Below are positions 24,678-24,796 of a DNA stretch of 64,000 nt, one piece after another. A model generated the notes under the pieces. The model did no database searches and had not been told where the DNA came from. It worked only from the letters and a program-made list of their open reading frames with translations. The position numbers and the translations under genes are program-made. Position 1 is the stretch's first letter. Each line of letters opens with the position of its first letter. The DNA is from Escherichia coli O127:H6 str. E2348/69 (GTDB taxonomy: Bacteria > Pseudomonadota > Gammaproteobacteria > Enterobacterales > Enterobacteriaceae), in assembly GCF_000026545.1 (NCBI RefSeq), contig NC_011601.1. The stretch is one strand, 5' to 3'.

Positions 24678-24796
24678 TCCAAGTGAACTTTTGTCTTGAC
24701 GATTTCATTATGCGATCGCATGTTTATGGTGTTCACAAAATGCAAACGATCCGTATTCGTCCTGATTAATCAACATTAAACGAGGAATGTTGCATC
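24678..24796. promoter_or_regulatory. Lysis-lysogeny switch region (divergent promoters, operator candidates)
   Basis: Intergenic between divergent cI and apl; perfect palindrome TGCGATCGCA at 24711..24720; TTGACG -35-like hexamer. Confidence 0.5.

Follow-up and report, generated by a model that had tools for sequence, protein, structure and literature searches.

The 125-bp spacer between the divergent genes cI and apl (positions 24672-24796), in a 186-like prophage of the enteropathogenic Escherichia coli (EPEC) strain E2348/69, reads from its sequence as an ordinary phage-186-type lysis/lysogeny switch. It is an uncharacterised new member of that switch family. An earlier note on the 64-kb stretch of DNA that we analysed (hereafter the window) had singled out two features as candidate operators for the repressor CI and a CI paralog: a perfect 10-bp palindrome within the spacer and an imperfect inverted repeat overlapping the cI start. 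Both features are real, and the view that the region is a divergent cI/apl switch is borne out by Pfam matches for CI and CII, by the 125-bp spacer and by promoters placed as in 186. Of the two, the inverted repeat is a strong candidate for an operator. The palindrome, which in fact spans 12 bp, is not an operator unit as judged from its sequence and its variation; it appears to be a coincidence private to this strain, in which an operator half-site, a GATC and a mutated -10 hexamer happen to meet. The explanation that we favour as a whole, and consider likely, is a 186-type switch with facing promoters pR and pL, three candidate CI operators (O1, O2 and O3) and an incidental palindrome.

Our comparison of pR drew on genomes, IMG/VR and phage records, about 300 related loci in all, with about 80 promoter variants aligned. 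Conservation figures given below without further qualification refer to group 1, that is, to the 50 unique variants of the E2348/69 switch type. SW9 and Kp4872-2 were left out of the spacer comparison, and groups 3, SEN8 and ST13 gave no clear operator assignment. The phage 186 record NC_001317.1 served as reference annotation, and the sequences of the distal 186 CI sites FL and FR were read from its GenBank coordinates.

Two predicted face-to-face promoters

The predicted lytic promoter pR lies on the plus strand, with the -35 hexamer TTGACG (24696-24701) followed after 17 bp by the -10 hexamer CATGTT (24719-24724). Its position beside the cI start matches the annotated place of pR in 186. 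All related switch groups have TTGAC(G/A) (TTTACT in the 186 clade), a 17-bp spacer and a TAnnnT hexamer next to the cI start; elsewhere the homologous -10 hexamers read TAATAT, TAGTAT, TAATGT or TAAAGT.

The predicted lysogenic promoter pL (24787-24815) lies on the minus strand and partly inside apl, with the -35 hexamer TTGAAA (24815-24810), a 17-bp spacer and the -10 hexamer CAACAT (24792-24787). The sequence around the apl ATG, GGAATnnTGCAnnATG, aligns with that of 186, and this alignment places the two pL hexamers at exactly the offsets from the ATG that are annotated for 186 pL: +13 to +18 for the -35 and -10 to -5 for the -10. At the sequence level the two promoters face one another, with predicted starts near 24731 (pR) and 24781 (pL), about 50 bp apart. 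From sequence, conservation and positional homology to the annotated 186 features we infer that both are active. In the switch that we propose, pR would fire rightward into apl, cII and onward to dam and A, and pL would fire leftward into cI.

The palindrome is probably a by-product of a pR mutation

The perfect 10-bp palindrome TGCGATCGCA (24711-24720) is part of a longer perfect one of 12 bp, ATGCGATCGCAT (24710-24721), with GATC at its centre (24714-24717). The window holds 43 perfect palindromes of 10 bp and 11 of 12 bp, and Markov shuffles of it hold more (73 and 20). By this estimate the chance of a perfect palindrome within a given 125 bp is about 7.5% for 10 bp and about 2% for 12 bp; its occurrence in the spacer is mildly unusual and not compelling. 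No second copy exists in the 64-kb window with one mismatch allowed.

Nor is the palindrome conserved in related immunity regions, which the earlier note had named as a finding that would count against it. Position 24719 is T in 47 of the 50 variants, giving a TATGTT -10 hexamer and breaking the symmetry. The perfect form is confined to three variants, that of E2348/69 and two rare ones; the two backgrounds other than E2348/69 that have the C allele also have damaged -35 hexamers (TTGTAG and TTGGCG). The exact 61-mer is found in 3 of the 538 E. coli genomes that have the switch, and all three are E2348/69 assemblies. The left flank of the palindrome, which is also the centre of the O2 spacer, is a hypervariable triplet (24708-24710) whose columns vary more than any others in the spacer; the allele counts there are T27/C20/A3, T23/G16/C6/A5 and G28/A22. 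With a simple position weight matrix the promoter scores 12.0 with T at 24719 and 8.5 with C.

On this reading the palindrome joins the right half of O2 (GCGATC, with its conserved GATC) to the -10 hexamer of pR, of which it takes in the first three bases. The derived T-to-C change of E2348/69 at the first -10 base completes the symmetry, and it should weaken pR. The prevalence of T at 24719, the hypervariable flank, the private 61-mer and the lower promoter score with C all point the same way: the "perfect palindrome" is probably a by-product of a pR down-mutation.

The nearest relative, KFu019, has an identical paralog protein and an imperfect palindrome. Over 1,451 bp the two loci differ only at 24667 (N2S in CI), 24719 (the first pR -10 base, T to C) and 24742 (A to G in the right half of O3), and all three changes are derived in E2348/69. 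Along the 9-kb left arm of the prophage there are 13 differences between the two, three of them inside 76 bp. These three changes in the switch core suggest selection for tighter repression in the E2348/69 prophage. The KFu019 copy (L305, NZ_CP091700.1 1585237-1604528) is itself a deletion remnant, in which the terminase, tail-sheath and tape-measure genes are truncated pseudogenes and the switch, the paralog and the KAP gene are intact.

Three candidate CI operators

We propose that CI would repress pR by way of three 17-bp inverted repeats of 6-N5-6 form. The first, O1 (GGTCAC-TCCAA-GTGAAC, 24672-24688), abuts the cI ATG and is centred about -51.5 from pR +1; it is the better way of writing the imperfect repeat of the earlier note, GTCACTccaAGTGAAC (24673-24688). 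The weaker candidate O2 (GATTTC-ATTAT-GCGATC, 24701-24717) is centred at about -22.5 in the pR spacer, and its right half supplies the palindrome's left and central part. The third, O3 (GTTCAC-AAAAT-GCAAAC, 24731-24747), lies over the pR start with its centre at about +7.5, 59 bp from that of O1. The three centres fall at 24680, 24709 and 24739, spacings of 29 and 30 bp.

Sequences of this kind are rare in the window. In the 64 kb the core TCAC-N5-GTGA is found at just two places, and GTTCAC-N5-GTGAAC with up to two mismatches occurs six times, two of them inside the spacer (O1 and O3, 59 bp apart); O1 is the best match in the window. Given this rarity of both the core and the near-matches, the inverted repeat is statistically a stronger feature than the palindrome. 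Moreover, O1 is invariant across the variants save for its spacer base 24682 and singletons, and O3 is nearly invariant, whereas third-codon positions in the nearby part of cI vary freely. Within O3, G24742 is private to E2348/69 (the base is A in 47 of the 50) and raises the symmetry of the site. The half-sites of O2 are conserved around three hypervariable central bases, and conserved arms with a variable centre are the pattern expected of a site for a dimeric helix-turn-helix (HTH) protein. Of the three candidates O2 is the least secure.

The distal sites of 186 are also 17-bp repeats of 6-N5-6 form with a TCAC/GTGA core: FL is CTTCAC-TTAAT-GTGAAT and FR is ATTCAC-TTTAT-GTGAAT. Both O1 (GGTCAC-N5-GTGAAC) and O3 (GTTCAC-N5-GCAAAC) fit this A type. 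The inverted repeat at the cI start has the geometry and core of FL and FR, is nearly invariant and has a second copy 59 bp away; the palindrome has neither a central spacer nor the core.

Inverted repeats stand at equivalent places in relatives. One relative (L135) has a different half-site, GATTTC, at both the O1- and the O3-equivalent positions (GATCTC-N5-GAAATC at -51.5 and GATTTC-N5-GAAACC at +7.5), so that the pair co-varies, and another (L011) has an inverted repeat at the O1-equivalent position. In L015 a perfect repeat, GATCAC-TTAAA-GTGATC, is found at -22.5 and ATTCCC-GTAAT-GGGAAT at +7.5. Cartapus has the perfect repeat ATCTTG-AAT-CAAGAT at -22.5, and 813R9 has GTACCC-AATT-GGGTAC at +8. 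In all, inverted repeats at +7.5 to +9.5 are present in L135, L015, 813R9, L210 and L008-L010. Within the 186 clade (L224-L303) the pR spacer carries an inverted repeat at -21 whose arms co-vary (ATCTC/GAGAT, ACTTC/GAAGT, AACTCC/GGAGTT and ATACC/GGGAT) between fixed -35 and -10 hexamers. On this footing of sequence, conservation and positional homology to 186, we predict both that CI binds O1, O2 and O3 and that the mutation at 24719 affects pR.

Several points weigh against this assignment. The cI Shine-Dalgarno sequence (GGAG, minus strand, 24680-24677) is covered by O1, and the conservation of O1 could partly reflect the ribosome-binding site inside it. The half-sites of O2 (GATTTC and GATCGC) are unlike those of O1 and O3 (GTTCAC). 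A spacing of 29-30 bp amounts to 2.8 helical turns, which is neither the two turns of 186 pR nor a clean three. The pattern that unites the three sites, GNTYNC-N5-GNRANC, was derived after the fact; it matches at nine places in the window, of which three fall in the spacer, 29-30 bp apart. Between 23139 and 25763, a search for distal sites like FL and FR at up to three mismatches returned none besides O1 and O3, which leaves room for weak sites or sites of another type. Finally, a consensus promoter scan missed pR in E2348/69, because CATGTT is a weak hexamer.

The search for distal sites also sought a pB site and gave nothing convincing. Counting in steps of 21 bp from O1, we found an inverted repeat at neither +21 nor +42. 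Near the 3' end of the apl coding sequence, in a position comparable to that of 186 FR, GCTTTC-AGAAT-GCAATC (24988-25004) fits the degenerate pattern; relatives with the same O1 and O3 do not conserve it, and we set it aside as probably due to chance. Just past the apl stop, TAGTTCGAT (25016-25034) is kept across groups, at the place where 186 has the left half of FR (TAATTCACT). Since it shows no co-variation with the type of operator, it may belong instead to a CII-dependent pE promoter.

A conserved GATC in the pR spacer

The GATC at the core of the palindrome, a Dam site, occupies -17 to -14 of pR and is present in 49 of the 50 variants. It also recurs in other immunity groups: nine of ten representatives of heteroimmune groups have GATC at spacer positions 13-16, with a pairwise identity of 90% there and of only 35% at spacer positions 1-12. 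Loci that bear it include L008-L018, L186, L210, L219-L221 and L223, and it is absent from the pR spacers of 186, YenM_06.16-2, HP1, ESSI-2 and L135. A second GATC (24748-24751), 34 bp from the first, is likewise present in 49 of the 50 variants and is not general in other groups. In NZ_LT827011.1 the two sites lie at 856714-856717 and 856748-856751. The conservation of the first GATC may reflect the O2 half-site, a site of Dam methylation, or both.

One alternative, which is compatible with the 186-type switch described above and which we regard as unlikely though worth weighing, is that this GATC is a functional methylation site modulating CI at O2, the use of pR, or both, so that the phage Dam encoded in the pR operon or the host Dam would feed back on the switch. 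The GATC is held in place despite diverged spacers, and the two bases ahead of it vary (GC, GT, TG and AA). The equivalent base in the half-sites of O1 and O3 is G or T and not A, so it is not obvious that recognition by CI would by itself call for a GATC. An early-operon dam is found here and in 813R9, SEN8, Cartapus and ST13-OXA48phi12.1, all of which have the GATC, and 186 and YenM_06.16-2 have neither. This correlation between gene and site was clean on seven phages, but it was lost in a larger sample. Relatives of the L107 type have the GATC although gpA was found without dam, whereas L277, L302 and ESSI-2 have dam and no GATC. Moreover, the GATC follows the clade of the CI N-terminal domain; shared ancestry or a CI half-site could explain it, and the GATC can be taken for the outer part of a half-site, GATCRC, that fits the A type.

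We are more doubtful of a further step, in which this GATC, lying both in O2 and in the spacer of pR, would serve the switch as an epigenetic element. In the lysogen, CI at O2 would shield the GATC from Dam. Once pR fires, Dam from the operon or from the host would methylate it, and methylation would lower CI re-binding or alter the strength of pR, making the lytic decision harder to reverse. If true, a 186-type switch would gain a layer of control by methylation, and the dam genes that are common in these phages would have a role. Dam-sensitive promoters and switches built on competition between a protein and Dam include IS10 pIN, P1 cre, pap with Lrp and agn43 with OxyR. Here too a GATC sits in a core promoter and a putative repressor site, a likeness in the placement of the GATC. 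Our literature search for Dam control in switches of the P2/186 kind, and for undermethylated GATCs in prophages of this type, found nothing relevant.

Other readings of the palindrome

It is improbable that an additional leftward promoter has its -10 hexamer (CATAAT, 24712-24707) in the left half of the palindrome and its -35 at TGAACA (24735-24730), and drives cI from a start at about 24700. The site matches the consensus at 9 of 12 positions in the scan, with a 17-bp spacer; its -35 hexamer and the critical bases of its -10 hexamer (A at position 2, 24711, and T at position 6, 24707) are conserved, and a start near 24700 would keep the cI ribosome-binding site in the leader. However, the scan found three sites where 3.6 are expected from shuffles, and the middle of the -10 hexamer is hypervariable (CACAGT, CACGGT, CACTAT and CATCAT in relatives). 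The -35 coincides with a half-site of O3, and this overlap would explain its conservation. Furthermore, 186 lacks such a promoter, and the homologue of pL is intact here.

We consider it very improbable that the CGAT(C/T) motifs (24700, 24713 and 24747), or the palindrome, are bound by an Apl/Cox-like protein and not by CI. The Apl sites of 186 begin at the pR -10 hexamer and Apl represses both promoters (PMC7498355); GCGATC, moreover, is found in groups that share the MxPNISITL type of Apl. The motifs are 13 and 34 bp apart, unlike the direct repeats of Apl/Cox one turn apart, and groups with a different type of Cox also keep GATC there. Better direct repeats are available in ATTAAT (24765-24770) and ATTAAA (24775-24780), which lie on the plus strand between pR and pL, 10 bp apart. 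We tentatively regard these as Apl/Cox-type sites by analogy with 186, whose Apl protein binds, between pR and pL, to direct repeats spaced by one helical turn (PMC7498355). The pair stands at the same offset in L135, and its second member varies in relatives of the L107 type. They are the only two clear direct repeats between the promoters; the 186 record has seven Apl sites.

Least probable of all is that the palindrome is itself an operator for a dimer of CI, the paralog or both: it has its perfect symmetry, of low chance frequency, and it lies over the pR spacer and -10, an effective place for a repressor, but besides its absence from most variants, its variable left arm and its single copy, its form without spacer or core is unlike that of known 186-family operators, and prophages with the identical paralog (WP_000107166.1) carry the imperfect form.

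Comparison with phage 186 and related switches

In the record for 186, pR is marked next to the start of cI and is overlain by three CI sites. Seven Apl sites lie between pR and pL, the -35 of pL falls within apl, and FL and FR are given as distal CI sites. The E2348/69 switch resembles it in many respects. Its CI has the same two Pfam domains, cI and apl diverge and apl is followed by cII and fil, the promoters lie face-to-face with pR adjoining the cI start and pL at identical offsets from the apl ATG, and one candidate operator abuts the cI start while another lies in the pR spacer near -21/-22.

The differences are also clear. The CI proteins are only 33% identical, although S, R, Y and R of the recognition helix are invariant in their alignment. 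The candidate operators are 29-30 bp apart in place of about 21 bp (two helical turns), and the predicted promoter starts are about 50 bp apart in place of 62. Distal sites of the FL/FR type, which in 186 lie about 300 bp to either side of pR, were not found, and the Apl-type direct repeats have another sequence. The GATC in the pR spacer and the dam gene of the early operon are both absent from 186, and E2348/69 has an extra CI paralog with tandem HTH domains downstream of cI.

The spacing has a partial parallel in 186 itself. At pB, 186 CI binds A-type sites 32 bp apart as one CI oligomer, and atomic force microscopy has shown that 186 CI wraps longer DNA than expected (PMC3675496). This pair of A-type repeats, about three helical turns apart, recalls the 29-30 bp spacing seen here; it belongs to another promoter, and the DNA between its sites is distorted, whereas in E2348/69 three candidate sites bracket pR.

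Spacers of 88-125 nt between cI and apl/cox are on record for 186-type switches, and an immunity class with a 125-nt spacer was already noted in E. coli and Salmonella prophages by Nilsson et al. 2011 (PMC3448106). The members of this class (PhiECO1, PhiECO2 and PhiSEN1) are like the E2348/69 switch in spacer length and in the type of their CI/Apl region; PMC3448106 defined no promoters or operators for them. A switch about 95% identical to that of E2348/69 is present in about 538 of 5,426 complete E. coli genomes (about 10%).

The CI paralog and its cassette

Between cI and int lies a two-gene cassette (21585-24051) encoding a CI paralog with tandem HTH domains and a P-loop nucleoside triphosphatase (NTPase) of the KAP family. 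The paralog gene (23128-24051, minus strand; WP_000107166.1) encodes 307 residues with two CI-type HTH domains in tandem and a CI C-terminal domain; Pfam detects two stretches of Phage_CI_repr together with Phage_CI_C, and over residues 122-302 the protein shares 55% identity with CI. The earlier note was right that the paralog shares the DNA-binding domain of CI. Its second HTH is identical to that of CI at 21 of 22 positions and its recognition helix, SKSTLATRYMRD, is wholly identical, while its C-terminal domain has clearly diverged more from that of CI. On this basis it is plausible that the paralog recognises O1 and O3 and competes with CI for these sites.

A link between the perfect palindrome and the cassette was considered and rejected. 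Five loci (L125, L130, L057, L094 and KFu019) combine the cassette with T at 24719, and the linkage fails in reverse as well, since L047 and L099 have C at 24719 without the paralog.

Only about 15 of roughly 530 E. coli genomes with the switch carry the cassette, and most have an open reading frame of 192 nt in its place. Elsewhere the slot holds a gene annotated "chromosome segregation ATPase" in 813R9 and distant KAP homologues (30-34%) in L047 and L007. It looks like a variable cargo site, co-transcribed with cI and possibly meant for defence genes. Just upstream of the KAP gene, ATTTAC-TTAAT-GTAAAC (23122-23138) overlaps the stop of the paralog gene. This repeat has the 6-N5-6 form and the TTAAT spacer of 186 FL, and it could be an operator-like site of the cassette. 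The sole annotated immunity repressor of Salmonella phage SW9 (L307 3225-4070), a protein of 281 residues with two Phage_CI_repr domains and a CI C-terminal domain, has the architecture of the E2348/69 paralog.

Genes and setting of the switch

The prophage in the window matches the E2348/69 prophage adjoining rcdA/ybjJ at 100% identity. Its genes run in the order int, KAP-family NTPase, 307-residue CI paralog and cI, and the divergent arm begins with the apl-like gene and continues with cII, fil, DUF5347, DUF2732, a TraR/DksA zinc-finger protein, dam and the replication endonuclease. The immunity repressor gene cI (24102-24671, minus strand) encodes a 189-residue protein of the 186-CI family (WP_000051080.1, "phage repressor protein CI" in RefSeq) with a Phage_CI_repr HTH domain (E=2.9e-33) and a Phage_CI_C oligomerisation domain (E=7.2e-27). 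We place its start at the annotated ATG at 24671; position 24678, used in the earlier note, is an in-frame GTG further upstream.

The apl/cox-like gene (24797-25018, plus strand) encodes 73 residues. Its product has no Pfam match, and phage records label its homologues as Cox or as Cox-like excisionase and repressor. Downstream of it, cII was identified by PF06892 (E=1.1e-43). No known RNA family matched between 24300 and 25200 at E<=1. Among the related loci, two contigs labelled as Bacillota metagenome-assembled genomes (L006 and L014) carry an enterobacterial prophage switch, with CI 90% and 43% identical; these labels are most likely a binning error.

Significance

As first stated, the finding of a palindrome matters little: it is a private accident of sequence in a recognisable 186-type switch. 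Other features of the switch have wider bearing. The 29-30 bp spacing of the candidate operators, in a switch type that about 10% of complete E. coli genomes carry, bears on the length of DNA wrapped by the 14-mer wheel of CI (PMC3675496). Since a GATC is fixed at one place in the lytic promoters of heteroimmune relatives, it becomes possible to test whether methylation feeds into the switch. The three changes in the switch core concern E2348/69, a widely used strain, and suggest selection for a more tightly repressed prophage.

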